This document shows, one piece after another, positions 2,887 through 54,669 of a stretch of 56,979 nucleotides of DNA. The notes below the pieces were generated by a model. It was not told the DNA's origin. It was given only the letters and a program-made list of their open reading frames with translations, and ran no database searches. This DNA is from an uncultured Oscillospiraceae bacterium (GTDB lineage: Bacteria; Bacillota; Clostridia; Oscillospirales; Oscillospiraceae): contig CAJTLK010000001.1 of the NCBI GenBank assembly GCA_910577415.1, positions 1 to 56,979 on the forward strand, read 5' to 3'. Both the position numbers and the translations under genes were made by a program. Positions within the stretch are counted from its first letter, which is position 1. Each line of letters starts with the position of its first letter.

Positions 2887-3267
2887 TCACAGCTCCCGGA
2901 GAATTTCCTGCCGCTTGGTCTCATACTCTTCGGCAGTAATGAGCCGCTGGTCGTAGAGCGCCTGAAGCTTTTTCAGCCGCTCCTCGGCGCTCTCCTCCAC
3001 GCCGGGGTCCTCATCGGTGATCTCAAGTCCAAAGTCACGGTGCAAGCCGTAAAGGCCGTTCTTACTTACCGCGCCGTAAATGCCGATCCCCACAAAGCAG
3101 CAGGCCATCAGTGTCCACACCGCGCCAAAGGCCCCTCCCCCTGAGGGGATGACCTCCGTAACGCCAATGACCACAAAACCCAGGCCAACGAGGGCAAAGA
3201 CCCCAGAGAAAACACGGCTGAAGGTCTTCATGGCAGGAGAGGGCCGGAAGCGGATATTCTTTTTCAT
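2887..3267 (-). CDS. Two-TM membrane protein with C-terminal SHOCT domain
   Basis: Two hydrophobic segments plus [29 protein letters not shown]; overlaps the gyrA stop. Confidence 0.8.
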
Positions 3268-5828: not shown

Positions 5829-5876
5829 TTATGTTCCTCCTTGTTAGAGGTTCAGCTTCTAACCTATATTCAGAAT

Positions 5877-5902
5877 GTGGGGCCCGACGACCTCGTCGGG
5901 CC
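5877..5902 (+). repeat. Single REP-like palindrome in the gyrB-gyrA spacer
   Basis: GTGG followed by GGCCCGACGA-CC-TCGTCGGGCC; no U-tract. Confidence 0.45.
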
Positions 5903-5908
5903 AACCGC

Positions 5909-7930
5909 TTAATAATCCAGATTGACCGCGTACTTGGCATTCTTCTCAATAAATGCCTTTCGTGGTTCTACTTTTTCGCCCATAAGGACGGTAAAGGTCT
6001 CGTCGGCGGCCACGGCGTCGTCCAAAGTGATGCGGCGCAGGGTCCGCTTCTCCGGATCCATGGTGGTCTCCCACAGCTCATGGGGGTCCATCTCGCCCAA
6101 GCCCTTAAACCGGGAGATGTCCACCTTGGCGTTGGGATTGTCCCCCCGCAGCTCGGCGGATATCTTATCCCGCTCCTCCTCGGAGAAGGCCAGGCGCACT
6201 GTTTTGCCCTTGGTGAGCTTAAACAGGGGAGGCACCGCGGAGTAGACATACCCCTCCTCCACCAGAGGACGCATAAAGCGGAAAAAGAAGGTGAGCAGCA
6301 GGGTGCGGATGTGGGCGCCGTCCACGTCGGCATCGGCCATAATAATGATTTTATGGTAGCGCAGCTTCTCGATGTCAAACTCGTCGCCGATGCCCGCTCC
6401 CAGGGCTGTAATGACAGGCTGAAGCTTGTCGTTTCCGTAGACCTTGTCGGCTCTGGCCTTTTCCACGTTGAGCATCTTTCCCCACAGGGGAAGGATGGCC
6501 TGGAACTGGCTGTCCCGGCCCTGGGTGGCGCTGCCGCCGGCGGAATCGCCCTCTACGATGTAAATTTCAGTAACAGAGGGATCGGAAATGTTGCAGTCCC
6601 GGAGTTTATCGGGCATGGCCGCGCCGCCCAGGGCGGTCTTGCGGCGGACACTCTCCCGTGCCTTTCGGGCCGCCTCCCGGGCGCGGTTGGCGGTGAGGGC
6701 CTTTTCCAGGATGGCCTTGCCCACGGCGGGGTTTTCCTCCAAAAAGACGGTCAGCTTTTCAGTGATGATGGCGGATACCAATGCCCTGATCTCGCTGTTG
6801 CCCAGCTTGGCCTTGGTCTGGCCCTCAAACTGAGCCTCTGTGAGCTTCACCGAGATGACGCAGGTAATACCCTCCCGGCAGTCCTCGCCGGAGACCTTGT
6901 CCTCGTCCTTCAGAATTTTCATTTTTTTGCCGTAGGCGTTGAGCACGTTGGTGAGGGCCCGCTTGAAGCCGTCTTCATGCATACCGCCTTCGGGGGTGCG
7001 GACGTTGTTGGCGAAGGAGAGAATATTTTCGTTATAGCTGTCGCTGTACTGAAAGGCGATCTCAGCCTCAGCGTCCTCCTTCTGTCCCTTTACGTAGATG
7101 ACCTGACCGTGGAGGGGGGTCTTATTGGTATTGAGGAAGGTGACAAACTCCTTGATACCGCCCTCGTAGCACATCTCGTCCCGCTGCTGCTTGCCCTCCC
7201 GGCAGTCCTCAATGATAATGCGAAGACCCGCATTGAGGAATGCCTCCTCCCGGAGCCGGGTATGGAGAACGTCATAGTCATAGACGGTGGTGTCGGTAAA
7301 CATCTCAGGGTCTGGCTTAAAGACCACCTCGGTACCTGTTTTTTCAGTCTGGCCTACCACCTTCATCTGTTGGGTGACAAGGCCCCTGGCAAACTTCATT
7401 TCGTAGATGGAGCCGTCCTTGTGGACCCGGACCTCCAACCATTCGGAGAGGGCGTTGACCACGCTGGCGCCTACTCCGTGAAGGCCGCCGGAGACCTTGT
7501 AGCCGCCGCCGCCAAACTTGCCGCCGGCGTGAAGGATGGTATAGACCACCTCCAAAGCAGGCTTCCCGGTCTGGGCCTGAATGTCCACGGGAATACCCCG
7601 GCCATCGTCGGTAACTTTGATAATGTCGCCATCCAGAATGGAGACGGTGATATTTTTACAGTACCCGGCCAGAGCCTCGTCAATGGCGTTGTCCACGATC
7701 TCATAGACCAGGTGGTGGAGACCGGAGGAGGAGGTGGAGCCGATATACATGCCCGGACGCTTCCGCACGGCCTCCAAACCTTCCAGGACCTGGATTTCTG
7801 AAGCGTCGTAGTCATGGTCGGTCTGGGTAACGCTGTCGCTCCAGTCCTCTTTTTCGGATAGCTTCACCGCAGTCTCTACCGGCTGCTCCTCTTCTTCTAA
7901 AATTTCATCTTTTACTTGCTCGTCGTTCAT
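5909..7930 (-). CDS. gyrB: DNA gyrase subunit B
   Basis: [54 protein letters not shown]. Confidence 0.98.
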
Positions 7931-8022
7931 AGGGTACCTCCTGAATTTTGCGGAACGCAGAAAACCGTTTGTGGCATCAAGCGGTTTTCTCCGTCCCGCT
8001 TTGTTGTGTCATACCGTAAGAT

Positions 8023-8283
8023 CTATTCCATTCCATTTCCCGTTAACCGCCCCCGGAGCACTGTGGGGGAGAGAGGAGAAAGGTAAACTCTGGCAACACT
8101 GTCCTTCTGGCACAATACAAAGGAGCGGGGTAGTCCGGCGGCGGCGTTGACCACCCTTCCCTCCTTTTCCGCCCGTTCCAAAAACGCGCGGGTGCGGTGG
8201 GACCAGGAGGCGTTGTCCAGATCAAAGACCCCTAATATATCCTCCGCGGGCACCACTACCGATTGTCCCAGATGCAGGTACAT
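8023..8283 (-). CDS. remB: RemB/DUF370-family protein
   Basis: MYLHLGQ...ILGVFDLD...PRSFVL; conserved position between recF and gyrB. Confidence 0.85.
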   Translation of the reverse strand: MYLHLGQSVVVPAEDILGVFDLDNASWSHRTRAFLERAEKEGRVVNAAAGLPRSFVLCQKDSVARVYLSPLSPTVLRGRLTGNGME

Positions 8284-8310
8284 GGGTCTTTCCTCCCGCT
8301 GCTTTTCAGC

Positions 8311-9411
8311 TTAGACCAGCTCGCCATCTTTAATGTGAAAACGTTTCCCCCCAGCGGACACATCTTTATCGTCCTCACAGCAGGTGATGAGCACCTGGCC
8401 CCCTGTGATACGTTCCAGCACGAAGCTCTGGCGCTTGGCGTCCAATTCGGAAAGCACATCGTCCAAAAGCAGCACCGGCCATTCTCCCGTATCCTCTTTG
8501 AAAAACTCCCGGCAAGCCAGCTTTAATGATAGTGCCGCCGTCCGGGTCTGTCCCTGGGAGGCATATTGTCTGGCGCTCTGACCATCGATCTCCACCGTAA
8601 GGTCATCCTTGTGAGGGCCGGAGAGACATTGCCGGGAATCCAGCTCTGCCCTGCGGTGGTTTTGTTGGTGAGCCAAAAGCTGCTCCAGAATGATCTTAGG
8701 AGCAACCTCCGGGTCCGTCACTGTGGATACGGTCTCATACCGCAGAGCCAGCCTTTCCCGCCCGCCGGAAAAATCCTGTTGAATCGGTGGGGCCAGGGCA
8801 GATAAACGTTTGATAAAATGGGCACGGTAGTGGATCAGCACCGCCCCCACCTGGGCCATTCGAAGGTTAAAGTCGTCCAAGGTATCCAAAAGAGAGGGCT
8901 TGTCCTCCCAATCCCGGAGAATACGGGTCTTTTCCTCCCAGAGTTTACGGTATTCCGCCAAACTTACCGCGTACCGGGGCCGCAGCTGGCAAATAGCGTC
9001 GTCTAAAAAACGCCTTCTCTCTGCCGCTCCCGAGCGAATGAGGGACAAGTCCTCCGGGCAAAAAAGGATGGTGTTCAATACCTCCCCCAGCTCCCCGGTA
9101 TTCTTCAGTCTTACCCCGTTGGAAAAAAGCTGCCGCCGTTCTCCACGGTGCAGTCTGGCCTCCACAGTATGGTCCCGCCCTTTGGAAAAGACCTCTCCTT
9201 TGAGAAAGCCATGGTCCACTCCAAACTGGATCAGCTCCCGATCATACCTGGCCCGGTGGCTTCGGGCAGTGGATAAGTACGCCGCGGCCTCCAAAAGGTT
9301 GGTCTTTCCCTGGGCATTCTCCCCCCAGATCACATTGACGCCGGGAGAAAGGTCTGCCTCGGCATGGGCGTAATTGCGGAAGAAATCCAGTTCTATTCGT
9401 TTGAGTATCAT
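8311..9411 (-). CDS. recF: DNA replication/repair protein RecF
   Basis: GENAQGKTNLLEA, GPHKDDL, SQGQTR, LLLDDVLSELD. Confidence 0.97.
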   Translation of the reverse strand: MILKRIELDFFRNYAHAEADLSPGVNVIWGENAQGKTNLLEAAAYLSTARSHRARYDRELIQFGVDHGFLKGEVFSKGRDHTVEARLHRGERRQLFSNGVRLKNTGELGEVLNTILFCPEDLSLIRSGAAERRRFLDDAICQLRPRYAVSLAEYRKLWEEKTRILRDWEDKPSLLDTLDDFNLRMAQVGAVLIHYRAHFIKRLSALAPPIQQDFSGGRERLALRYETVSTVTDPEVAPKIILEQLLAHQQNHRRAELDSRQCLSGPHKDDLTVEIDGQSARQYASQGQTRTAALSLKLACREFFKEDTGEWPVLLLDDVLSELDAKRQSFVLERITGGQVLITCCEDDKDVSAGGKRFHIKDGELV

Positions 9412-9620
9412 GCCACGACCAACCTTGTCCCGTTCCAGTCTGCCCTATCGCCGGGGCGAAGCTTTTTGCCCCGCATGGTGCAGACCTCTCCGTTGACACG
9501 GACCTCTCCGGCCTGAATGGCCTCCTTCGCCTCCCCGCCAGTCTCCGCCGCGCCGGAGAATTTCAGTAAGTCCTGGAGCTTGATATATTCTGTTGTGATG
9601 CGGATGGTTTCCTCTCTCAT
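9408..9620 (-). CDS. yaaA: S4-domain RNA-binding protein YaaA
   Basis: EYIKLQDLLK...GGEAK...VNGEVCTMRGKKL; between dnaN and recF. Confidence 0.93.
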   Translation of the reverse strand: MREETIRITTEYIKLQDLLKFSGAAETGGEAKEAIQAGEVRVNGEVCTMRGKKLRPGDRADWNGTRLVVA

Positions 9621-9621
9621 A

Positions 9622-10746
9622 TCATTTGTCCCAATTCGCGCTCATACGGACAGGAAGCACCATGAACAGGAAGCTCTCCTGTCCACTCTCCTCGTTGGTG
9701 GGTACGATAATGCAAGGGGTAGAAGGAGTGCCCATCAAAAGGGTAGCCTTTTCAGCGGGAACCGCTTTCAGAGCGTCCATCATAAAGCGGTGATTGAAAC
9801 CAATGTGCAGATCACCGCCGCTACCCACGGCAGGACATTGGTCTGTGGCGTTGCCGGTAGGAGTCAGAGTGGAGAGATAGATCATATCATCCCCCACAAT
9901 ACACCGCAGGGGGTTTTTAGTATTATCCTGCAAAATAAGACTTACACGGGTGATGGAGGTCATAAGAGCCTTGACCTCGACCTCCAGCTTAATGCTACTC
10001 TTCCAGGAAATGGATTGGCGGTAGTTGAGAAATTCGCCCTCCAGCCGCCGTGTCACCAGCAGGGTATTGCCTACCTTAAACTGAATGTGCCGCGCGCCGG
10101 TGGTAATGGCCACCGCCTCGTCTCCCTCTCCCGAAATGGACTTTACCTCGCCCAAAGCGGCGCCGGGGACCACAAAGGAAAAATCCCGTCCGGGGGCTTC
10201 CTCCAGCTTGGCTCTGCGAAGGGCCAGGCGTTGACCATCCACCGACACCACGGTGAGGACGTCCCCTTCTACTTCAAAAAGAGAACCGGTAAGAATGGGT
10301 CTGCCGTCATTTTGGCAGACGGCAAAGAGGGTGCGTGTGATCATGTCGGTAAGAGTGCTCCGGGAGAGTAGAAGGGCATTCTGCGCCTCCACCGAGGGAA
10401 GCTCCGGGAATTCCTCCGGGTCAATGGCCTGAATATGAAAGTTGCTCATACCGCATTGGATATGAACATTAAGCCCCTCGGAGGAAAAACTCACCATATC
10501 GTCCGGCAGATTGCGGACAATATCGCCGAACATCCGGGCCGACAGGACCAAGGACCCGCTTTCCTGAACATCGGCAGGTACCACGGTACGAATACCTGTT
10601 TCCAGATTGTAGCCGGTCAGCCGCAGTTCGTTATCGGCCTCTAAAAGAATGCCTTCCAAGGCCGGAATGGAGCTTTTGGGAGCGGTGGCCCGTGAGGAGG
10701 TCGCAATTGCCGATTGTAAAAGCGCTTTTTCACAGGAAAACTTCAT
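9622..10746 (-). CDS. dnaN: DNA polymerase III beta clamp
   Basis: 374 aa; RPILTG, SVDGQRLA, GFN, C-terminal LFMVLPVR; follows dnaA. Confidence 0.96.
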   Translation of the reverse strand: MKFSCEKALLQSAIATSSRATAPKSSIPALEGILLEADNELRLTGYNLETGIRTVVPADVQESGSLVLSARMFGDIVRNLPDDMVSFSSEGLNVHIQCGMSNFHIQAIDPEEFPELPSVEAQNALLLSRSTLTDMITRTLFAVCQNDGRPILTGSLFEVEGDVLTVVSVDGQRLALRRAKLEEAPGRDFSFVVPGAALGEVKSISGEGDEAVAITTGARHIQFKVGNTLLVTRRLEGEFLNYRQSISWKSSIKLEVEVKALMTSITRVSLILQDNTKNPLRCIVGDDMIYLSTLTPTGNATDQCPAVGSGGDLHIGFNHRFMMDALKAVPAEKATLLMGTPSTPCIIVPTNEESGQESFLFMVLPVRMSANWDK

Positions 10747-10800
10747 GGTAGGTGTTCCTCCGTTCTTTTTCTCTTATTTCCCGAAGGGAAAGGAGAGGAT

Positions 10801-10990
10801 TTTTAAGAATTTAGTCGCAGTAGTCGTAGGGGGTGTGAAGATGGTGGAAAAGTGGTAAAAGCCTTAGAGCGGCCTGTCGAAGAAGCGCACAGAAAAAGGT
10901 GGAAAACCTGGCGCGGATACACAGAAAAAGGCGAAGGGTGGAAAAGCGAGCGAAGGCGGTTTGCACATTTCCACGAAAGAGGGTGGAAAA
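10801..10990. other. oriC downstream part: DnaA boxes and basal unwinding system
   Basis: GGTGGAAAA (reverse complement TTTTCCACC) at 10843, 10898, 10937 and 10982; degenerate box 10834-10842; GGGG spacer; trios TAG-TCG-CAG-TAG-TCG-TAG at 10812-10829; AT-rich tract next to them. Confidence 0.88.
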
Positions 10991-11024
10991 GGGGAAAAGC
11001 GGGAAGAACGCTTCGCAGCGCTTT

Positions 11025-12341
11025 TTACTCGTACCTTGCGTTAATGTTGGCGTTGATGTCTTTAATGGCCTCGGCCTGTTCGGGGGAATCCTTAATGAGC
11101 TTTTCCACCCGCTCGATGGAGTGCATGGCGGTGGTGTGGTCCCGCCCGTTAAAGACCCGGCCAATTTCTTTAAGGGAAAGGTTGGTCATGCGGCGGATCT
11201 CATACATAGCCACCTGCCGGGCCATGACCGTGTCCTTGGTCCGGGCCTGCCCCTTAATGTCCAAGGGGTCGATATTATAAAATTTGCCTACCTCTTCAAT
11301 GATCGTATCGGGAGAGGGCATAAAGTCCTGCTTGTCCTTAAACATATCCCGGACGGCACGGGTCACGGTGTCTACGTCCACCTGCTGGCCCAGTAGCTCC
11401 TGAAAGGCTAAGATTTTGTTGACGGTGCCCTCGATCTGGCGCACGTTGGCGGTGATATTTTCCGCAATAAAGCTCAGCACCGGCTCGGGCAGGTTCATGC
11501 CCCGGGAAATGGCCTTATTTTTGATGATCGCCACCCGTGTCTCATAGTCAGGGGGCTGAATGTCCACAGGCAAGCCCCACTCAAAGCGGGTCTTCAGCCG
11601 GTCATCCAGCCGGAGCATTTCCTTGGGGGGGCGGTCAGCGGTGAAGACGATCTGTTTGCCCTGTTCGTAAAGGGTGTTAAAGGTGTGGAACATCTCCTCC
11701 TGGCTGGCCTGCCGTCCGGCAATGAATTGGACGTCGTCCATAAGAAATACGTCGGCAGCCCGGTACTTTTCTCGGAACTCCTGGTTCTTGCCGCCCTGGA
11801 TGGCGGCGATAAGCTCGTTGGTAAAAGCGTCGCCCTTGATATAGACGATGCGGTAGTCCGGGTGCTTGGCGTGGATAGCGTGGGCAATGGCGTAAAGGAG
11901 GTGGGTCTTGCCTAAGCCGGACTCCCCGTAAAGGAAAAGAGGGTTGTAGCCCTTGGGCTTTCCCGGCGCGTCGGCCACGGCCTTGGCGGCCGACCAGGCA
12001 AACTTGTTGGAAGAGCCGACCACAAAGGTGTCAAAGGTATACTCCTCAGTGCCCGGAAGAAAGTCTCCCCGGTTAGATTCGTAGCCGTCCAGCTCCCCTT
12101 CCCCCAGGACCACCACATCAAAGTCAGTGGAAAAAAGCTCCCTGAGGGCCTTTTGGATGGCGGAGACGTAGCGAGAGGAAATAATATCCTTTTTGAAGTT
12201 GGAGGGGGTATGAATGACCAGGCAGTCGCCCTCCAGGGCCACAGCCCGGGCGTCGTCAAACCAGGTGCTCAGGGTAGTGGCAGTGAGGTCGGCCTCCATC
12301 AAGCGCAGCGCTTTTTTCCAAATTTCCTCGGCGGAATTCAT
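11025..12341 (-). CDS. dnaA: Chromosomal replication initiator DnaA
   Basis: YTFDTFVVG, YNPLFLYGESGLGKTHL, MDDVQFI, NVRQIEG, GRDHTT. Confidence 0.99.
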   Translation of the reverse strand: MNSAEEIWKKALRLMEADLTATTLSTWFDDARAVALEGDCLVIHTPSNFKKDIISSRYVSAIQKALRELFSTDFDVVVLGEGELDGYESNRGDFLPGTEEYTFDTFVVGSSNKFAWSAAKAVADAPGKPKGYNPLFLYGESGLGKTHLLYAIAHAIHAKHPDYRIVYIKGDAFTNELIAAIQGGKNQEFREKYRAADVFLMDDVQFIAGRQASQEEMFHTFNTLYEQGKQIVFTADRPPKEMLRLDDRLKTRFEWGLPVDIQPPDYETRVAIIKNKAISRGMNLPEPVLSFIAENITANVRQIEGTVNKILAFQELLGQQVDVDTVTRAVRDMFKDKQDFMPSPDTIIEEVGKFYNIDPLDIKGQARTKDTVMARQVAMYEIRRMTNLSLKEIGRVFNGRDHTTAMHSIERVEKLIKDSPEQAEAIKDINANINARYE

Positions 12342-12368
12342 GGGGTATCTTCTCCCTCATTTCTCTTT

Positions 12369-12511
12369 TGCGGATAATTGCCTACATTAATATATAGTAT
12401 ACCAAAAAAGCCCCTCTAAGGCAATGAAAAAGGGGGAGAAAACAGAAAAATTTTTCCACAAAAGCAGTCGGTTTTGTGGGCATTTCTTTGTTTGGCACAA
12501 AATGTGGGAAT
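12369..12511. other. oriC upstream part: DnaA boxes upstream of dnaA
   Basis: TTATCCGCA (minus, 12369-12377), TTTTCCACA (12452-12460), ATTCCCACA (minus, 12503-12511) and further degenerate copies. Confidence 0.7.
12396..12424 (-). promoter_or_regulatory. dnaA SigA promoter
   Basis: TTGCCT-17 bp-TATACT with extended TG; a DnaA box lies just downstream, consistent with autoregulation. Confidence 0.7.
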
Positions 12512-12548
12512 ATACCGCCCTTCTGGGCCGGCCTAAAGAAAAATAAGG

Positions 12549-12578
12549 TTGACAGGGCAGCGGTTTTTCCGATATAAT
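12549..12578 (+). promoter_or_regulatory. rpmH operon SigA promoter
   Basis: TTGACA-18 bp-TATAAT; a second extended -10 (TGTGGTATACT) at 12639-12649. Confidence 0.7.
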
Positions 12579-12763
12579 GACCGTTGCGGCTATTATACTT
12601 TGTTTGGGCTGTCATGTCACAGCGCAGCATTTAGGGCCTGTGGTATACTGTCGCCTGCGCCTTTATACGGCGCTGAATTTGTGAACCGCGCCCCGGACCT
12701 TTGTCCCCGGCGTTGTGGCAGACGGGGTTTTCTCCGTCAATCAGGAACAGGAGGTGCAGGAAA

Positions 12764-12910
12764 ATGCAGAGAATGAAGGGTATGACCTATAACCCCAAGA
12801 AGCGTCAGCGTCAGAAGGTCCACGGTTTCCGTAAGCGTATGTCCACCGCCAACGGCCGTAAGATCCTCTCCAGTCGGCGCCGCGCCGGTCGCGCCCGCCT
12901 GAGCTACTAA
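12764..12910 (+). CDS. rpmH: 50S ribosomal protein L34
   Basis: [42 protein letters not shown] before ATG 12764. Confidence 0.96.
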
Positions 12911-13011
12911 GGTGACGCGGCAAATCAAATAAGGGCTTTTTGGGGGCGGTGGAGTTTTTCTGCCGCCCCACATGTGCATGGGGTAAAAAGCAGGGAGGAG
13001 CATAGCCAGTC

Positions 13012-13365
13012 ATGAAGCATACTGTCTCCATGAAGGAAAACTATCTCTTCCGCCGGCTTTATGCCAAAGGAAAGTCCGCCGCGGCTGCGTCTTTGGCGGT
13101 CTATGTCCGGCCAAACCACTCCCAGCGCACCCGCCTGGGGATCACAGTGAGCGCCAAGATAGGCAAGGCGGTGCGGCGCAACAAGATCCGCCGCCGCATT
13201 CGGGAGGCTTACCGTATCCATGAGTACCAGCTGTCTCCTGGGTGGGACATTGTAGTGGTGGCCCGGACGAGGGCGGCATACGCCTCTTACGCCGAGCTGG
13301 AACGGAGCCTGCTTTCCCTGTTGGACAAGCTGGGAGTGCGGCAAAAGCGGGAGGCGGAAAAATGA
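13012..13365 (+). CDS. rnpA: Ribonuclease P protein component
   Basis: [25 protein letters not shown] (RNR-like motif). Confidence 0.96.
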
Positions 13366-13580
13366 AAGGGTTGCTCCTTTGGTGCATCCGTTTTTACCGC
13401 AAGAACATCTCCCCCCTTTCCCAGCCCTGCTGCCGGTTTATTCCCACTTGCTCGGCCTATGCGTTGGAGGCGGTGGAGAAGTACGGCGCGTGGAAGGGCG
13501 GATGGCTGGCCTTGAAGCGGGTGCTGAAATGCCACCCCTTTCACCGGCAAAAAAGCGTGGAGTACGACCCTGTCCCATGA
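13362..13580 (+). CDS. yidD: Membrane protein insertion efficiency factor
   Basis: [24 protein letters not shown]...CHPF...YDPVP; ATGA overlap with rnpA. Confidence 0.95.
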
Positions 13581-13609
13581 CAAGAATTTAAGTGTGGAGG
13601 CCATATCCC

Positions 13610-14941
13610 ATGGATATTTGGTACTATGTCATGACCCCCTTTACCCTGCTGCTGAAGTTCTTCTGTCAGTTGCTGGGCAGCTACGGCCTGGCGCTGGTCT
13701 TCTTTGCCCTGGTGGTAAAGCTCATCCTATTCCCCCTTTCCCTCAAGGGAAAGAAGAGCATGATCCAAATGAATATGCTCTCCGGGAAAATGAACAAGCT
13801 CCAGAAGCAGTACAAGAACAACCAGCAAAAGTATAACGAAGAGGTGCAGAAGCTCTACGAGAAGGAGGGCGTGAACCCCATGGGGGGCTGCCTGTGGTCC
13901 TTCCTCCCTCTGCTGATCCTCTTCCCTCTTTACGCCATTATCCGCCAGCCCCTGAAGTACATGATGGGCATGACCCCCGACCAGATCGCCGCGGTGGCCC
14001 AGGCTTTGAACTGGTCCAGCGTGGCGTTGGAGCACAACTGGATCCGGGAGGCCGCCGACTTTGTCAACGCCGGAAATAACCAGCTCTATCTGTCCTCCCT
14101 CATCACCCCGGAAAACGTAGCGATGGTCCAGGCTGCGGCGGGGGAGACCGCCAAGGAGGTCTTCGCCATCAACTTCAGCCTGTTGGGAGTAAACCTGTCT
14201 CTGATCCCTAAGCTGAAATTCTGGGTGGACGGGCTGAAGGGCTTTGGGCTGTTCCTGGTGCCTGCCATCTCCGCCGGTACCAGCCTGCTCTTTTCCTTCG
14301 TCACTATGCGGACCAGCAGCATGAACAGCGAGAATTCCCAGGCCGCGCAGAATAAGACCATGCTCCTTATGAGTCCTCTGATGTCTTTGTGGATCGGCTT
14401 CTCCATGCCCGCGGCCCTGTCGGTCTACTGGATCGCCAACAACCTGCTGGGTATGGCCCAGGAGAAGATCAGCCATATCATGCTGAAAAAGGATTACGAA
14501 GAGGCCGCCGTGGCTGCCAAGCAGCGGGAGATCGAAGAGAAGGAAGAGGAGAAGCGTTTGCGCCGGGAAAAGGCGGAACGTCGGGCCAAAGAGGCCGAAG
14601 AGGCACGCCTTAACAAGGGAAAAAAGAAGGCGAAGACCGAGGACGAGGAGAAGCTCTCCCCTGAGCAGAAGGCCGCCAGCCGGGTGGGGATGCGCCAATA
14701 TGCCCGGGGCCGGGCCTACGACCCGGAGCGCTATGGCGGCGTGACGCCCTACCACGACGGCGAGGCCACCATCCAAGTGGCGGATAAGACAGCCGAAGCC
14801 GCGGGGACCGAAGCGGAAACTGCCGAGGCTCCTGTGGAGACTGCGGCGGAGATGGCGCAGACCATGGAGACCGCCCCTGTTGAAACGGCTCCTGTCAGTG
14901 AAAATGCTGACGAGACCGCAGAGACTACCACGGAAGATTGA
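13610..14941 (+). CDS. yidC: YidC/Oxa1 membrane insertase with long charged C-terminal tail
   Basis: VKLILFPL, LYEKEGVNPMGGCL, PAALSVYW; GGAGG RBS before ATG 13610. Confidence 0.93.
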   Translation: MDIWYYVMTPFTLLLKFFCQLLGSYGLALVFFALVVKLILFPLSLKGKKSMIQMNMLSGKMNKLQKQYKNNQQKYNEEVQKLYEKEGVNPMGGCLWSFLPLLILFPLYAIIRQPLKYMMGMTPDQIAAVAQALNWSSVALEHNWIREAADFVNAGNNQLYLSSLITPENVAMVQAAAGETAKEVFAINFSLLGVNLSLIPKLKFWVDGLKGFGLFLVPAISAGTSLLFSFVTMRTSSMNSENSQAAQNKTMLLMSPLMSLWIGFSMPAALSVYWIANNLLGMAQEKISHIMLKKDYEEAAVAAKQREIEEKEEEKRLRREKAERRAKEAEEARLNKGKKKAKTEDEEKLSPEQKAASRVGMRQYARGRAYDPERYGGVTPYHDGEATIQVADKTAEAAGTEAETAEAPVETAAEMAQTMETAPVETAPVSENADETAETTTED

Positions 14942-14967
14942 TCCCATCCGGGAAGGAGAGATACGTC

Positions 14968-15747
14968 ATGCAGAAGTTTATCGAGAGCACCGGAAAGACG
15001 GAGGAAGCCGCCATTGCCGCCGCCCTGGAGCAGTTAGGACTGTCCCGGGAGGAGGTCTCGGTGGAGGTTTTGGAGCTTGCGAAGCCCGGCTTCCTGGGCA
15101 TTGGCGGCACTCTTGCCAAGGTCAAGGTGACATACGAAGGCCCCGACGAGCCTGAAGAGGCCCCCACCCCTGCTGTGGAGGAGATCGCTCCCGCCGATGA
15201 GGCCGACAGTGTGGAATATGCCACCATGGACGCGGCTTTTGCTGAGGAGGAAGAGACTGCGGCCACCCCTGCCGCCGCTGATGACGAGTATGCGGCAAAG
15301 ATCGTGGATTTTCTGAGCGGACTGTTGGAGCGTATGGAGGTCAACGCTGTGCCCCACGTGTCGGTGGACGCCGAGGGCAATTACCTGGTGGAGCTGGAGG
15401 GCGAGGGTCTGGGAGCTGTTATCGGACGCCGGGGCGAGACCCTGGATGCGCTTCAACAGCTCACAGGCTACGCCGTGAACCACGGCCAGCAAAAGCGGGT
15501 GCGGGTGCGCATCGATGCCGAGGGTTACCGCTCCAAGCGGGAGGAGTCCCTGGAGCGCATGGCCCGCCGTATGGCCGACAAGGTGGTGCGCTATCGCCGG
15601 AACATGACCCTAGAACCCATGAACGCCTATGAGCGTCACGTGGTGCATACCGCCCTCCAGGACTATCCCGGTGTGACCACCTACTCCATCGGCGCCGAAC
15701 CCAACCGGCGCACCGTGGTGGCCTACGCCCCCGGCGGAGAAGAATAA
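14968..15747 (+). CDS. jag: RNA-binding cell elongation regulator Jag/EloR (KhpB)
   Basis: Jag_N (GKTEEAAI...GFLGIG), KH (IGRRGETLDALQ) and R3H (MNAYERHVVH) domains. Confidence 0.95.
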   Translation: MQKFIESTGKTEEAAIAAALEQLGLSREEVSVEVLELAKPGFLGIGGTLAKVKVTYEGPDEPEEAPTPAVEEIAPADEADSVEYATMDAAFAEEEETAATPAAADDEYAAKIVDFLSGLLERMEVNAVPHVSVDAEGNYLVELEGEGLGAVIGRRGETLDALQQLTGYAVNHGQQKRVRVRIDAEGYRSKREESLERMARRMADKVVRYRRNMTLEPMNAYERHVVHTALQDYPGVTTYSIGAEPNRRTVVAYAPGGEE

Positions 15748-16108: not shown

Positions 16109-17434
16109 TTACCACCAAAAGTTCCCGAACGGCCAGGTGCTGAAGCCACTGTTGCCGGTGCTGGGCTGACGCTGAGCGGGCTGCAGGGACTCCTGGTAGC
16201 TTTTCTGAAGCTGATCCATGGCCTCGGAGCGGGCCTGGTCATACTCGTCCAGGGTGGCGGCGACGGTGAGGGTCTCGTTGTTCCGCCAGAGGGTGAAATT
16301 CACTTTCTCTCCGGCCTTGTGGGCTTTAACGGCCTCCTTCAGCTCGTCGGCGCTGGTGATGGCGGTGTCGTCCACGGCGGTAATGATGTCGCCTTCCTGA
16401 ATGCCCGCCTTATCGGCGCAGGAGCCGTCCAGAACGGCGGAGATATAGGCACCATCGGGGATGCCATAGCGCTGAATGGCTTCGTTGGAGACCTCCTCCA
16501 TCAAAATGCCCACATTGGGCTTGCCGGTGACATAGCCCTTCTCAATAATGTCGCTGACCATGTCAATAACATCATTGATGGGAATGGCGAAGCCGATGCC
16601 CTCAATGGAGGCGTTGGTGGAACCGTTGTTGGAATACTTGGCGTTGGTAATGCCGATGCACTCTCCATAGGTGTTGAAGAGGGGGCCGCCGGAGTTGCCT
16701 GAGTTGATGGCGGCGTCGGTCTGCATCACGTTGATGGTGTTGCCGTCGGACATGGTAATGTTCCGATCCAGAGCGGAGACATAGCCGGCGGTCAAGGTAA
16801 AGGTAAGCTCACCCAGGGGGTTGCCGATAGCAACCACCTGCTGGCCCACCTTCATATCGTCGGAGTTGCCCACCACCACGGTCTGGAGGCCGGAGGCGTC
16901 GATCTTCAGTACGGCGATGTCATTGGCCTCTTCGCCGCCTACCAGTGTGGCGTCATAGGTGGTGCCGTCGGCAAAGGAGACCTTCAGGTCGTCCACGCCG
17001 TCAATGACATGGTAGTTGGTGAGAATATAGCCGTCGGAGGTAATGACAAATCCGGAACCGGCCACCGGGTTACTGACCACCTGGCCCCAGTAGTTGGTCT
17101 TCACATCGCCGTTGACGCCCACAACGCTGCCCAGATTGGCGGCGTAGACTTGATCTACGGTCATAGCGTTCTGGCCGTCCACCCGGGCCACATGCACTGC
17201 GGTGGGGCCGCGGTCACTGACGTTGATGGTGGTGCCGGTCCCGCCAAAGCCGGCCAGCAGTCCCGCCGCCCCCATGCCTGCCGCGCCTACCGTGCCGCCC
17301 AGCAGGGCGCACACCAGACATAGAGCGACCATTTTTGCGGTGCTGTGCTTTTTGACCTTCACCGGGGCAGCCGCCGGGGTCGCAGAGGGGTCAATAAGCT
17401 GATCGTCCCATTTGTTATAATCGTTAAAATACAT
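16109..17434 (-). CDS. htrA: HtrA/DegP-like serine protease with PDZ domain
   Basis: GSGFVI, TNYHV, DIAVL, QTDAAINSGNSGGPL, PDZ; N-terminal TM; AAGGAG RBS before MYFND. Confidence 0.93.
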   Translation of the reverse strand: MYFNDYNKWDDQLIDPSATPAAAPVKVKKHSTAKMVALCLVCALLGGTVGAAGMGAAGLLAGFGGTGTTINVSDRGPTAVHVARVDGQNAMTVDQVYAANLGSVVGVNGDVKTNYWGQVVSNPVAGSGFVITSDGYILTNYHVIDGVDDLKVSFADGTTYDATLVGGEEANDIAVLKIDASGLQTVVVGNSDDMKVGQQVVAIGNPLGELTFTLTAGYVSALDRNITMSDGNTINVMQTDAAINSGNSGGPLFNTYGECIGITNAKYSNNGSTNASIEGIGFAIPINDVIDMVSDIIEKGYVTGKPNVGILMEEVSNEAIQRYGIPDGAYISAVLDGSCADKAGIQEGDIITAVDDTAITSADELKEAVKAHKAGEKVNFTLWRNNETLTVAATLDEYDQARSEAMDQLQKSYQESLQPAQRQPSTGNSGFSTWPFGNFWW

Positions 17435-49688: not shown

Positions 49689-49718
49689 ACCTTTCAGAAA
49701 AACCCAAAAGCGACGCGG

Positions 49719-49764
49719 AAAAAGCCCCCGGAGCTTCGCTTATGCGAAGCTCCGGGGGCTTTTT
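49719..49764. terminator. Bidirectional intrinsic terminator
   Basis: AAAAAGCCCCCGGAGCTTCGC-TTAT-GCGAAGCTCCGGGGGCTTTTT. Confidence 0.92.
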
Positions 49765-49768
49765 CTTT

Positions 49769-50674: not shown

Positions 50675-50843
50675 ATAAAACACAACGGCATTTTCACGGC
50701 AGGGGCCGTGTTTTTATCCCCTCCAGCGGAAGGAGGGGACCGGCAGCGCCGGTATGCGCGTTCCGCTTTTCCGGCCCGGACGTATGGAAGGATACGCCCG
50801 CGCTTTGCCGTGGCCGGGACATTTGAAAAAAGGACGTTCCACT

Positions 50844-52955
50844 ATGACCTTTCAAGACCTGGGGCTGATCGCCCCCATCCTCTCCGCCCTGGGGGACATG
50901 GGCTATGAAAAACCCTCTCCCATTCAGGAAAAGGCTATCCCCCCCGCCCTGGCGGGCCGGGACGTGCTGGGCTGCGCCCAGACCGGCACCGGCAAGACCT
51001 GCGCCTTTGCCGCCCCTATCCTTCAGCGTCTCTCCCAAAGCCGCCCTGACCGGGGCGGCCAGGACGACCCCAAATATAAGCGCTCTATCCGCCCCATCCG
51101 CGCCCTTATTTTGACCCCCACGCGGGAGCTGGCTCTTCAAATTCAGGAGAGCTTTGTCTCCTATGGGAAAAACCTGCCCCTGCGCTCTGCCGTCATTTTC
51201 GGCGGCGTGGGGCAGCAGCCCCAGGTGGACGCCCTCAGACGGGGGGTGGATATCCTGGTGGCCACCCCCGGGCGGCTCCAGGACCTCCACGACCAGGGGT
51301 TCATCCATGTGGAAAACCTGGAAATTTTTGTGCTGGACGAGGCTGACCGGATGCTGGACATGGGCTTCATCCACGACGTGCGGAAGATTTTGACCTGGCT
51401 GCCCCAAAAGAAGCAGACCCTCTTCTTCTCCGCCACCATGCCCCCGGAGGTCCAAGGTCTGGTGGATTCCTTACTGACAGACCCGGTAAAGGTGGCGGTG
51501 GACCCGGTGTCCTCCCCGGTGGAGATCATTGACCAGAGGCTTTTCTATGTGGACAGGGGCAACAAGTCTAAGCTGCTGGCAATGCTGGTAAAGCACCCGG
51601 ACGTAAAGAACGCCCTGGTCTTCACCCGCACCAAGCACGGGGCCAATAAGGTAGCCGGGGACCTGGAAAAGGCGGGTGTCCGCGCCGCCGCCATTCACGG
51701 CAACAAGTCCCAGACCGCACGGCAGCAAGCCCTCAGCGACTTTAAGGCCGGAAAGATCAAGGCCCTGGTGGCTACCGACATTGCCGCACGGGGCCTGGAC
51801 ATCGAGGAGCTGAGCCACGTCTTTAACTATAATCTCCCCGATGTGCCTGAGACCTACGTTCACCGCATCGGACGTACCGGGCGGGCGGGCCACGGCGGCA
51901 CCGCCGTCTCCTTCTGCGAGTTTGGGGAGAAGGAACTGTTGGCCCCCATTGAAAAGCTGCTAAAAAAGTCCATCCCCGTGGTGGAGGGCCACCCCTTTCC
52001 TATGCAGGTGTTTGAGGCCCCGAAGCGTGACAAGCACGGCAAGATCGTTAACGCCGACGACACCGAGGCTCGTCAGGCGGCCAGGGAGCGGAAGCAGCAG
52101 CGGCAAAAGGCCGCGGCGCAAAAGCCCGCCGTCCCGGAGAAAGCAGGGGCGGGTCCTAGACCCGCCCGCGCCGCTGCTCCAGAAAAGGGCGGGACCCATC
52201 CGCCTAAGCAAAAGTCTGCCCAGCCCCCGCAAGGGGACCGCGGCGGCCACAGACCTGCCCAGACCACCGCCTCCGGTAAGCGGGCCTCGGCGGGCTACAA
52301 GCCCAGCCGCACTCTGGACGAGGCCATGACCGCCATGTCCCCGAAAAAGGGCGGCGCTCAGCCCAAGACCGCCGCACCCATGGACGACAAGGAGGCCGCT
52401 TTCCAGGCGTGGCTGGCCGAGGAGCGGGCCATCCAGGCCAAACAGGCGGCGTACTACAAGGATAGGGACCCCCTGGCTGGGGACGTAGTTATGGATGCCA
52501 CCGCCCGGCTCCTGGCCCCCAAGACCCCGGAGCAGCCCAAGACCGCCGGACAGGCCCGCCGTGACGATACTGACCGCCAGATCTCCCGCCAGGAACGGGG
52601 CAAGGGGCGGCGGCAGGAGGGACAAAAGCAGCCCCCCACCATAGAGGCAGGTCCCAAACCTGCCCGGAAGCCTGCCCTGGTCCAGCAGTCCCAGAAGCAG
52701 GGGAAGGCCCAGCCCCACAAGAGCCAGCTGCCGAAGAAGGTGGATAAACCAAAGGCCGAGCCGCCCAGGCCCCATAGCGCCAAGCCCACCGCTCCCAAGG
52801 CGGCCCCCGCCTCGGTTAAGGAAAAGCCGAAAAAGGGCGGGCTGTTCCGCCGGGGACGGCCCATGGAACCTGCCGTCCGCCCCAGCGATCAAAAGGATTC
52901 CACCGAGCAGCAGAGTCTTATGCGGCCCTATTATTTCAATCCCAACGGGGATTGA
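50844..52955 (+). CDS. DEAD-box RNA helicase (RhlE-like) with long basic C-terminal tail
   Basis: [41 protein letters not shown]; start at MTFQDLG. Confidence 0.94.
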
Positions 52956-53028: not shown

Positions 53029-53799
53029 TTATCGTGTGTCCTTGTCCCTTTGTTTTTCCCCTCGCTCTATCTGCTTGGCCCAGGTCTTTTCCGTCTGTGC
53101 CCGGAGAAAGGCCAGCAGCGGCTCCAACTTCTGCCGGGTATCCCATGCCTCCAAAGCCTCGTAGTAATCCTTCCGGTCCTCCTCGTGAATAATGATGGGG
53201 GGATGGCCACGGAGGATCAACAGGTAGTTCATGGTCAGCCGTCCTACCCTGCCGTTTCCGTCCGCAAAGGGATGGATGTTTTCAAACTTGGCGTGGAAGT
53301 AGGCCGCCGCGGTCAGAATGTCCTTGGGGTCAATGCCCCTCACCTCTTCCAGCAGCTCCGCCATTTCTTCCGCCACATCCTCCGGGGCGGCCCCCACCTC
53401 CCCCCTGCCTGTCACATAATCGTGGCGCTTATACTCGCCGGGGCGTTCCCCAAGCTGCCAACGACGGGCGTCGTAGGTGCCGTGGGTCAGCTGAAGCTGA
53501 AATTCCCGGACCAGGGCTTCATCCAGGGGGCGTCTGTCCCGAAAAGCCAGGAGGAACAACTCGTTGGCTTCCTTGGCGTTGCGAAGCTCAAAGAGGGTCC
53601 GCAGGTCGCCGGTATAGGAGGTAACGCCGTCGTGCTCAAAGACCTCTCTGGTGTCATGGTAGGTGATCTTCGCATTTTCCAGCTTCCCGGAGTGGTAGGC
53701 AAAGGCGATGCTGTGGCCGTTCAGGGCCTCGGCCAGCTCTGCGTCGGTCTGTGGGTCCTTGCGCCGCCACAATTCCAGCGCCCTCTCATAATTGCTCAT
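53029..53799 (-). CDS. Fic family protein (class II, N-terminal inhibitory helix)
   Basis: HPFADGNGRVGR catalytic motif; SGKLEN matches (S/T)xxxE(G/N); AGGAGG RBS before MSNYE. Confidence 0.92.
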   Translation of the reverse strand: MSNYERALELWRRKDPQTDAELAEALNGHSIAFAYHSGKLENAKITYHDTREVFEHDGVTSYTGDLRTLFELRNAKEANELFLLAFRDRRPLDEALVREFQLQLTHGTYDARRWQLGERPGEYKRHDYVTGRGEVGAAPEDVAEEMAELLEEVRGIDPKDILTAAAYFHAKFENIHPFADGNGRVGRLTMNYLLILRGHPPIIIHEEDRKDYYEALEAWDTRQKLEPLLAFLRAQTEKTWAKQIERGEKQRDKDTR

Positions 53800-53949
53800 G
53801 GAGAATCCTCCTGTGGTTGGTAGGGGTATTATATCACAGAAATAATGTCTTGCGGAAAGAAATTTGCGGGAGGGGACAAGCATCTGGAGGACTATTCTTG
53901 AATGTCAAAAATGTTCCCTACAATTTACATCTGCGATGTAAAGAACTCT

Positions 53950-54363
53950 GGGGGCCATCTTTTCCGGGTGGAAAAGACGCCCCCCAGGCCCCCAGAAAAG
54001 ACCCCAGGGGGAGAGAGTTTCGACTCTCTCTCCCCCTGGACCCCCACTCTCACCGACCAAGGAGAGGGGGACTGCGGTCCCCCTCTCCTTGGAACCCTCC
54101 CCAGGTCGTCCTCCTATAAGCGATTGGCCCGGCCCCCGCACTTCGTAGCGGTGGCCGGGCACGACAAACCCCTCGGCCGTTACAAAGTAAGGCCGAGGGG
54201 TCTTCTTGCCTCAGGAGAACGGCTTGGGTGGGTTTCCAAAGGGTAGGGGCCGCAGCCCCTGCCCTTTGGTCGTTTCAAGGGAGAGTCCGAGGGGGAAATC
54301 GAAATCCCCCTTCGGGGTTTCTTCGGGGGTTTGGGGGCATTCTTTGCCCCAAAGAATGCCTCC
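53950..54363. repeat. Composite element: two diverged, inverted three-hairpin arms around two central hairpins
   Basis: Left arm 53950-54097 and right arm 54230-54363 share hairpin order, TTCG and TGCG loops and linkers, but not stem sequence. Confidence 0.8.
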
Positions 54364-54399
54364 AAAAGACCTCCCCGCCATTGCTGGCGGGAAACAAGA

Positions 54400-54603
54400 T
54401 CAATTTTTGAGACCCAAAAGATAGTCCGTGGAGACCTTCAGATGCTTTGCCAGCAAAACCAGCCTGTCATAGCTTGGCTCATAGGAGCCGCCTTCATAAT
54501 ACTGGTATGACCGCACGGTGACACCCAAAAGCTCTGCCAACTCTTTTTGAGAACGCTTCTGCGCCTTTCGCAGCCCTTTTAGGCGGTCAGAAAAGATTTG
54601 CAT
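54400..54603 (-). CDS. XRE-family HTH regulator (67 aa)
   Basis: FSDRLKGLRK..SQKELAELLGVT..YE...EPS..L..LA..LKVSTDYLLG; AGGGG RBS. Confidence 0.9.
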   Translation of the reverse strand: MQIFSDRLKGLRKAQKRSQKELAELLGVTVRSYQYYEGGSYEPSYDRLVLLAKHLKVSTDYLLGLKN

Positions 54604-54614
54604 AAAATTACCCC

Positions 54615-54669
54615 TTGACATGAAAGTGAGTTTCACATATAATGAAGAAAACGGCGAAGCTAACTTTCG
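54615..54669 (+). promoter_or_regulatory. Consensus SigA promoter with two operator-like palindromes
   Basis: TTGACA-17 bp-TATAAT; spacer contains TGAAA-GTGAG-TTTCA; related CGAAG-CTAAC-TTTCG at 54655-54669. Confidence 0.8.

Follow-up and report, generated by a model that had tools for sequence, protein, structure and literature searches.

Structured extragenic palindromes such as REP/BIME and BoxC are known mainly from Proteobacteria, are present in high copy and have debated functions. REPs are single palindromes of 20–40 nt that occur in tens to hundreds of copies and are linked to RAYT transposases, and the roles proposed for REP/BIME comprise mRNA 3′-end protection, termination, and gyrase binding. 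In the Firmicutes, the modular structured repeats BOX and RUP of pneumococcus are intergenic, predicted to form multi-hairpin RNA or DNA, high-copy, and MITE-like. Invertons are invertible promoters of gut bacteria, flanked by inverted repeats. The BoxC/PIT/TMECO motifs of Escherichia coli are intergenic and, in the portion of their description available to us, are not tied to mobile elements and form a stable triplex in vitro that was not detected in vivo (PMC4666352). The same source describes five cases of inverted type A + type B pairs in strain MG1655, links the motifs to local rearrangement, and cites earlier work in which PIT/BoxC motifs had neither promoter nor terminator activity (PMC4666352).

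The window (the whole stretch of 56,979 nucleotides that was analysed) contains an element that we describe as a pair of five-hairpin modules, low in copy number and linked to an XRE gene, with a triplex-type motif; it is absent from Rfam and from the literature searched. It sits between a Fic-domain gene and a small XRE-family gene, as the original prediction had placed it, and all of the hairpins listed there are present at their positions. RNA folding of positions 53900–54420 (521 nt) gave z = −13.9 for the + strand and −13.75 for the − strand, with none of 100 shuffled sequences folding equally well, and three of the 18 distinct perfect hairpins with stems of at least 9 bp in the 57-kb window lie inside 440 bases at this site. 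Alignment of longer stretches revealed one imperfect palindrome spanning 53878–54447, with its center near 54164. The inverted homology thus extends outward beyond the arms originally noted and into the XRE 3′ end; its right limit, 54447, takes in the final ~48 nt of the XRE coding sequence, and its left limit, 53878, a decayed copy of the same stretch (local score for the outer flanks 23 versus 15.0 ± 2.4 in shuffles, with a shuffle maximum of 24). The left remnant, which has a deletion of 9 nt and an indel of 1 nt, encodes GDKHLEDYS* where the intact gene encodes KHLKVSTDYLLGLKN*.

Each arm of ~285 nt is composed of the last 25–50 nt of the XRE frame followed by five hairpins, H0–H4, spaced by C/A-rich, G-poor linkers (Table 1). 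Hairpin H0, at 53924–53942 and about 54372–54391, lies outside each of the arms originally noted, and its stems are unrelated in sequence between the left and right arms. The left H2 pairs a purine 5′ arm with a pyrimidine 3′ arm, and its sequence is the same in four genomes. The two hairpins that had been described as lying between the arms are indeed present but are not additional to them; each is H4, the last hairpin of its arm, as alignment matches the two to one another and to the terminal hairpin in other copies. The ~7-nt center between the arms has no promoter within it.

Table 1. Features of the palindrome and its neighbors, given as feature, positions in the window, strand, and remarks (I numbers are inverted repeats).
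XRE 3′ end remnant, decayed	53878..53901	+	outer edge of left arm; I6, I9
H0 left	53924..53942	+	TTTACATC-TGC-GATGTAAA; read from the sequence, aligns with right H0
H1 left	53948..53987	+	I5; 18-bp stem with 2 mismatches (18-nt arms, 89%), loop GGGT
C/A-rich linker, left	53988..54003	+	CCCCCAGAAAAGACC
H2 left	54004..54039	+	I7; 14 bp, 100%; loop TTTCGACT
Mirror repeat of H2 3′ arm	54040..54051	+	ACCCCCACTCTC; potential third strand of an intrastrand triplex
H3 left	54057..54092	+	I3; perfect 16 bp, loop TGCG closed by C-G
Left-arm tail	54093..54126	+	AACCCTCCCCAGG...; pairs with right tail (I1)
H4 left	54127..54160	+	I10; loop ACTTCGTA; first central hairpin of the original prediction
H4 right	54168..54201	-	I14; loop ACTTTGTA; second central hairpin of the original prediction
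H3 right	54236..54269	-	I8; 15 bp, 1 mismatch (93%); loop TGCG on - strand
Right-arm linker	54270..54286	-	weaker mirror of its H2 3′ arm, 7/8
H2 right	54287..54315	-	loop TTTCGATT on - strand
H1 right	54330..54366	-	I4; 94%
H0 right	54371..54394	-	followed by GTCTTTTGG; resembles a weak intrinsic terminator for XRE
XRE-family HTH_3 gene, 67 aa	54400..54603	-	last ~48 nt inside the inverted repeat
Fic-domain gene	53029..53799	-	neighbor only; absent from the other four loci

Alignment of the left arm with the reverse complement of the right arm, the check that the original prediction had proposed, gave a local score of 66, compared with 19 for the same-strand control and 20.5 ± 3.2 for dinucleotide shuffles (maximum 36; none of 500 reached 66). 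The arms are therefore inverted homologs with ~65% identity overall rather than sequences that are merely alike in shape; a similarity no greater than that of shuffled GC-rich terminator clusters had been named as the outcome speaking against the prediction. The claim that their stems differ and yet pair holds for the compensated differences, but the stems are not unrelated, as parts of H2 and H3 are common to both arms. Similarly, the statement that the modules conserve loops and linkers but not stems was right in spirit and overstated for H2, the whole stem of which is the same in four genomes.

Relatives were sought with a 21-nt core of the H2–H3 linker across 185,579 species genomes, which returned four loci in four MAGs, one per genome (one Oscillospiraceae, two Pseudoflavonifractor, and one Clostridia); the pattern covers the left-arm type only, so that the sample is biased toward it and the actual number of loci may be a little larger. 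All four MAGs differ from the genome that holds the window, and alignments between their loci and the window are limited to module-sized matches and a single ABC-transporter match. The family comprises eight full copies and one degenerate copy in the window and the four loci, the eight aligned modules being drawn from the window (two), L001 (three), L002 (one), and L004 (two), with L003 duplicating one L001 arm. The third module of L001 is solitary, lying 6.4 kb away and upstream of another HTH_3 gene. Searches with an HMM and with the covariance model R1, covering the remaining ~55 kb of the window and the remainder of the 31 kb of loci, added only the degenerate arm at L002 5390–5542 (25 bits).

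A spurious 114-aa ORF running across the left arm had eight matches in a set of 5.8 billion proteins and 19 look-alike representatives among 1.84 billion, one of which, a repetitive protein of 1795 aa, is probably unrelated; the small number of look-alikes indicates that the family is small. The peptide encoded by H2 and its linker recurs in several of these ORFs, whose ends differ. A distant-mode blastn search of 53870–54450 against plasmid and phage collections gave no match, and none of the 4227 Rfam models reached its gathering threshold in the window or in the loci. The best sub-threshold model was RF02354 (BjrC80), at 33.8 and 27.6 bits for the two arms versus a gathering threshold of 80; this, microRNA, and other sub-threshold matches were set aside as reflecting a generic GC-rich hairpin shape well below gathering. 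No description of an XRE-linked hairpin element was found in the literature searched. Collectively, these data give good support to a small, low-copy Oscillospiraceae family whose members always accompany XRE genes and mostly form convergent pairs, in agreement with one of the two original suggestions, that of two convergent copies of an unnamed structured element.

In an alignment of the eight copies that was fitted to the structure, and whose pair figures consequently lean toward that structure, 93.3% of 464 stem cells are standard pairs versus 75.3% in shuffles, and both-sided changes occur in 39 of 62 pairs versus 19.2 ± 2.6 in shuffles, none of 500 of which reached 39. When the partners were slid by 1–3 columns as a control, 41–58% were paired, and an unfitted MAFFT alignment contained compensatory change in 19 of 48 predicted pairs. 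The compensatory change that had been proposed from two arms is thus borne out across the eight copies. The unpaired parts are the most constant portions of the module; the H3 loop is TGCG with a C-G closing pair and the H2 loop TTTCGAYT in 8/8 copies, and the GGAC and CGACCAA segments are invariant. These results confirm that the feature is real and conserved in five genomes, and they indicate selection for folding.

The module is closely associated with XRE genes. In all four of the independent loci an intact XRE gene (67–73 aa; that of L004 is cut by the contig edge) reads into the proximal arm, which begins 0–12 nt past the stop codon, and the second arm then follows in inverted orientation. 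At the distal arm, an XRE 3′ remnant is present in the window, in L002 (clear, ...FNISTDYLLGLSDTP*), and in L004 (weak), and none is recognizable outside arm a of L001. The modules are 57–81% identical, and the XRE coding DNA 48–56%. The gene order of L001 is that of the window (ABC exporter, small divergent ORF, XRE, pair), with XRE proteins that are 48% identical, and the common order ends exactly at the pair. The small divergent ORF itself is not conserved, the window and L001 proteins giving no BLASTP alignment; the L001 protein has a sub-threshold match to DUF6809 (25.8 bits versus 27). Beyond the pair the neighbors vary, with Fic in the window, a DUF3592 protein in L001, ileS in L004, and adh in L002, and in the latter two loci the distal arm lies just downstream of the convergent gene. 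The accessory context originally suggested applies to the small, variable Fic and XRE genes, but the window as a whole is core chromosome beside gyrA, gyrB, recF, dnaN, and dnaA. Binding of the XRE protein to the hairpin loops was considered and dropped, as inspection by eye revealed no such motif common to the promoter regions of the two XRE genes, in the window and in L001.

The linker that follows H2 mirrors its pyrimidine 3′ arm over 11–12 nt in all five H2 sequence types, with p = 0.001–0.016 per copy against shuffled linkers. The mirror rule is not significant for H1 (p = 0.03–0.93) or H3 (p = 0.12–0.72) and is claimed for H2 only. Moreover, the linker co-varies with the stem; its own H2 is the best fit in three of five types, with one tie and one miss. 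Read on the G-rich strand as a purine motif, 12/12, 11/12, 12/12, 7/8, and 10/11 triads are valid in the five types (p = 0.0005–0.011 versus shuffled linkers), compared with 10/11, 10/11, 10/11, 7/8, and 7/8 for a pyrimidine motif on the C-rich strand. The purine motif fits better because each A that interrupts the linker faces a T, and the T·A-T triad is valid in the purine motif only. General ITxF-style conditions for an intrastrand triplex (three blocks of which the third mirrors the second, stems of 6–15 nt, and at most one invalid triad) describe the arrangement, with a second loop of 2–4 nt and a first loop of 8 nt (4 nt in an alternative register) that is above the ITxF limit of 6. H2 and its following linker therefore have the layout of a predicted intrastrand-triplex motif of the BoxC/PIT kind, and this mirror repeat with covariation is new in the present analysis. 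As purine-motif triplexes do not form in RNA, according to the part of the report available (PMC4666352), a structure of the G-rich strand would be one of DNA. G-quadruplex or i-motif formation by the G/C runs of the linkers was also considered and dropped, some copies having only three runs by eye.

Features suggestive of either strand are present. An XRE-sense RNA is suggested by the placement right after the stop codon, the invariant C-UGCG-G, the C/A-rich and G-poor linkers, and the weak terminator-like H0, and the opposite, G-rich strand by the mismatch skew, the lower folding energy, and the triad rule. Stem mismatches counted on the XRE-sense strand comprise 17 A·C versus 7 G·U, a leaning to the opposite strand that is not significant (p = 0.064), and the antisense strand folds 3.5–16 kcal/mol better in 8/8 copies, a difference confounded by its G-rich linkers. 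The UNCG-type loops recognized in the original prediction do lie on the XRE-sense strand, but an RNA role is not established, as the mismatches and the triplex rule lean to the other strand. In a loose terminator scan, right H0 (which is followed by a U-run) and the antisense of left H2 passed; on the XRE-sense strand, each of H1–H4 leads not into a canonical terminator U-tract but into a C/A-rich linker (the 359 linker bases comprise C 165, G 47, A 117, and T 30). Terminators of the A-tract/T-tract type are used elsewhere in the window. A promoter-like site at 53817–53846 (+ strand, 9/12) points into the left arm.

It is well supported that the feature arose long ago, when the 3′ flank of a small XRE repressor gene was duplicated in inverted orientation, and that the right arm follows the intact gene whereas the left arm is an inverted copy carrying only a decayed gene end. 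Its function we infer tentatively; the pair may act in cis as a structural boundary where the XRE transcription unit ends. As the arms are convergent, entry from either side would meet the same series of structures, in nascent RNA as stable hairpins with UNCG-type loops and C-rich spacers and in the template as hairpin- or cruciform-forming and triplex-prone DNA. The pair could in this way stop or buffer transcription and protect the transcript 3′ end, so that the XRE switch would be insulated from the variable gene beyond the pair. Counting against such a boundary are the lack of a U-tract after H1–H4, the lean of the mismatches, the better (though confounded) folding of the antisense strand, the purine-motif triad rule, and the inactivity of the E. 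coli PIT/BoxC motifs as promoters or terminators in the earlier work cited in PMC4666352. A boundary was nevertheless judged the most likely role, followed by one exerted by DNA alone.

The latter, which we consider rather unlikely, is that the element acts only as non-B DNA (a cruciform plus a purine-motif triplex of the G-rich strand), as in BoxC/PIT and BIME, with the RNA structure incidental, and that it would stall or load DNA enzymes and make the site prone to rearrangement. The H2 mirror in 5/5 sequence types with its interrupting As opposite T, the preference of linkers for their own H2 (three of five types and one tie), and the 17 A·C versus 7 G·U mismatches are consistent with this, and the H4 loop of the G-rich strand reads C-GAA-G, an extra-stable DNA triloop. 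The coding remnant inside the palindrome points to duplication at the DNA level, and the gene order common with L001 stops exactly at the pair. There are also signs of recombination between arms; those of L004 are 80% identical, with H0 and H1 shared, versus 65% in the window, as expected of homogenization. One metagenome ORF, P0005, follows the left flank of the window for 18 residues and then matches the − strand better (E = 9e-31 versus 1.6e-19), as if its interior were inverted, although this appearance comes from a single translated ORF. Such motifs have been tied to local instability, with inverted pairs of type A and type B, in the part of the report by Holder et al. available to us (PMC4666352); the triplex of the E. 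coli motif was, however, not detected in vivo according to the same source (PMC4666352). The invariant C-TGCG-G and the strict placement after the stop codon are easier to understand as RNA features, the mirror rule applies to H2 and not to H1 or H3, and the strand asymmetry does not reach significance.

Less likely still is a neutral relic, in which a fold-back or template-switch event produced an inverted duplication at a hairpin-rich terminator region without function, subsequently kept palindromic by templated quasi-palindrome correction and conversion between the arms. The distal XRE 3′ remnants of the window, L002 (clear), and L004 (weak) would be expected from such an origin, as would the decay that can affect a distal or proximal arm (L002 5390–5542, 25 bits), the tandem duplication at the edge of one L001 arm, and the homogenization in L004. 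The loops and linkers, however, are not protected by templated correction and are (nearly) invariant in eight copies from five genomes in which the XRE DNA is 48–56% identical, and for the mirror covariation of H2 and its linker we know of no mutational source.

An equally improbable but more ambitious possibility is that the module is a cis-acting nucleic-acid device of Oscillospiraceae not described before, in which the five-hairpin array, with its co-varying intrastrand triple helix, is retained as a convergent pair behind XRE switches and both seals the XRE unit on its two sides and provides a recombination joint for cargo exchange or for flipping of the interior. If true, this would be the first triplex-type motif with comparative evidence of selection and a fixed gene association.

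There is a smaller chance that each arm is a stable small RNA, made from the XRE 3′ UTR or from an orphaned XRE promoter, the unpaired C-rich linkers of which would bind target mRNAs by base-pairing to their G-rich ribosome-binding sites. C-rich, G-poor linkers between very stable hairpins invite comparison with the C-rich sRNAs of Firmicutes (RsaE/RoxS type), and the promoter-like site upstream of the left arm is suitably directed. No arm, however, ends in a terminator with a U-tract, the stem mismatches favor the other strand, and no Rfam family matches at threshold.

A MITE/REPIN-like non-autonomous mobile element, the other original suggestion, in which the arms would be structured terminal inverted repeats for a transposase, is very unlikely. 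Although the inverted repeats are long, the distal neighbors differ between genomes (Fic, DUF3592, ileS, and adh), and L001 has its third, solitary copy 6.4 kb away, the 21-nt core was found in just four loci among 185,579 species genomes, one per genome. The copy-number check that had been proposed, carried out on the window and the loci with the covariance model and HMM, gave nothing beyond the copies listed above, and look-alike ORFs number only 19 among 1.84 billion representatives. No transposase, integrase, or recombinase was present among the 50 that were scanned of the 95 window ORFs of at least 150 aa, and no RAYT (Y1 HUH) was seen in those ORFs or, by eye, in the listed ORFs of L001, L002, and L004. 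A MITE would have terminal inverted repeats with a target-site duplication; no such duplication or direct repeat was seen in the sequence at the palindrome edges, 53878 and 54447, and the homology ends within the XRE frame or its remnant. The outer ends thus lie inside a gene that reads inward, with a gene order common with L001, and the two arms at one site in 57 kb compare with tens to hundreds of copies per genome for REP/REPIN. The module is in every case tied to an XRE 3′ end. Finally, a chance cluster of ordinary GC-rich terminators, for which only the weak terminator-like appearance of right H0 could be cited, is refuted by the homology of the arms (z = 14) and covariation in five genomes.

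The XRE-linked module is low-copy, clade-restricted in gut Clostridia, and has a fixed gene partner, and its divergence shows compensatory change in four helices together with covariation of an H2 arm with its mirror linker. This makes it a tractable case in which to ask whether hairpin arrays at the ends of genes work at the level of RNA or of DNA, whether intrastrand triplex motifs are under selection, and whether palindromes mark swaps of accessory genes beside XRE switches. Were the pair only a terminator relic, its practical value would be smaller; in that case, the module region should not be annotated as hypothetical proteins, as gene callers have done in public data.

Compared with the REP/BIME/REPIN elements, the module shares an extragenic palindromic nature at gene 3′ ends, inverted pairs, conserved linkers, and compensatory stems, but differs from REP/REPIN in its arms of ~285 nt, its five different hairpins, its one to three copies per locus, and the absence of a RAYT from the ORFs inspected. 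BOX and RUP are likewise intergenic and modular with a predicted multi-hairpin fold, and differ in being high-copy and MITE-like. The three-hairpin, GC-rich layout of the Bradyrhizobiaceae sRNA BjrC80 aligns with the arms end to end, but 33.8 and 27.6 bits against a gathering threshold of 80 indicate a resemblance of shape and composition and not membership. As in invertons, inverted repeats enclose a segment, the interior of which seems to lie in the opposite orientation in one relative, P0005; unlike invertons, the locus has no recombinase gene nearby (none among the window ORFs scanned) and no promoter in its center, and the repeats measure hundreds of bases rather than 10–30. The BoxC/PIT/TMECO motifs, as far as the available part of their description goes, are similarly G/C-rich and intergenic, with a hairpin and a third block mirroring one arm (G·G-C, A·A-T, and T·A-T triads being possible), inverted pairs of two sequence types, no link to mobile elements, and flanks that vary between relatives (PMC4666352). 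In contrast to TMECO, the Hoogsteen block lies 5′ rather than 3′ on the G-rich strand, the stems are of 11–12 nt rather than 9, and the motif is part of a five-hairpin module that is low-copy, found in Firmicutes, and tied to XRE genes, a gene association not given for TMECO in the part of the source available (PMC4666352). Because the TMECO pattern, CCCTCNCCC-N3-6-GGGNGAGGG-N3-GGGNGAGGG as given there (PMC4666352), has no match on either strand of the window and the order of blocks is reversed, the element is, by this comparison, best regarded as an analogue rather than a member of BoxC/PIT/TMECO.

The hairpin pair, a palindrome of two inverted arms with five hairpins each (H0-H4; window 53878-54447), sits within the core chromosome, approximately 42 kb from dnaA. 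The XRE gene, which the right arm follows, is overlapped in its 5' end region by a perfect promoter on the plus strand. By eye, a similar perfect promoter adjoins the solitary third module (L001c) of a related locus, L001, at about 16659-16689.

Features of the window surrounding the hairpin pair
Feature	Window position	Strand	Remark
gyrA, gyrB, recF, dnaN, dnaA	3267-15744	-	chromosomal origin neighbourhood
yidC, jag/KhpB	3267-15744, after the gyrA-dnaA group	+	chromosomal origin neighbourhood
22-bp perfect hairpin, A-run and T-run flanks	49718-49765		between two genes
Perfect TTGACA-17-TATAAT promoter	54615-54643	+	serves an 83-aa divergent ORF

The 22-bp hairpin is a strong bidirectional terminator, which shows that canonical terminators are used elsewhere in this genome. 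Past its helicase core, the DEAD-box helicase (window 50754-52955, +) extends into a C-terminal tail of some 300 residues, rich in Lys, Pro, Gln, and Ala.

The spacing between the arms varies among loci. The two arms abut in the window, and an additional hairpin-rich stretch is found between them in two related loci, L004 (343-780, about 440 nt) and L002 (5183-5390). This stretch is partly common to the two loci and gave no match when compared with Rfam.

The arms of L004 (137-340 and 781-986) have the same H0 and the same H1 and share 80% identity, as compared with 65% for the arms of the window, which suggests arm-to-arm conversion in some lineages. In L001, a 69-nt unit is present in 1.9 tandem copies (10086-10220) on the outer side of arm a, one of the paired arms; the repeat consists of the 3' half of H1 together with a small hairpin, both duplicated.

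The hairpin region (window 53902-54246, +, and similar frames) has been called as "proteins" in public sets, with eight look-alike ORFs in a set of 5.8 billion proteins and 19 among 1.84 billion protein representatives; these are almost certainly not genes. Two such metagenome ORFs carry the same left flank as the window. In P0005, compared with window 53873-54385, 18 residues correspond to this flank, and beyond it the minus strand of the window is a better match than the plus strand, as though a relative carried the palindrome with its interior inverted. P0002 has the same left flank, but its H4 is of the type found in L001c.
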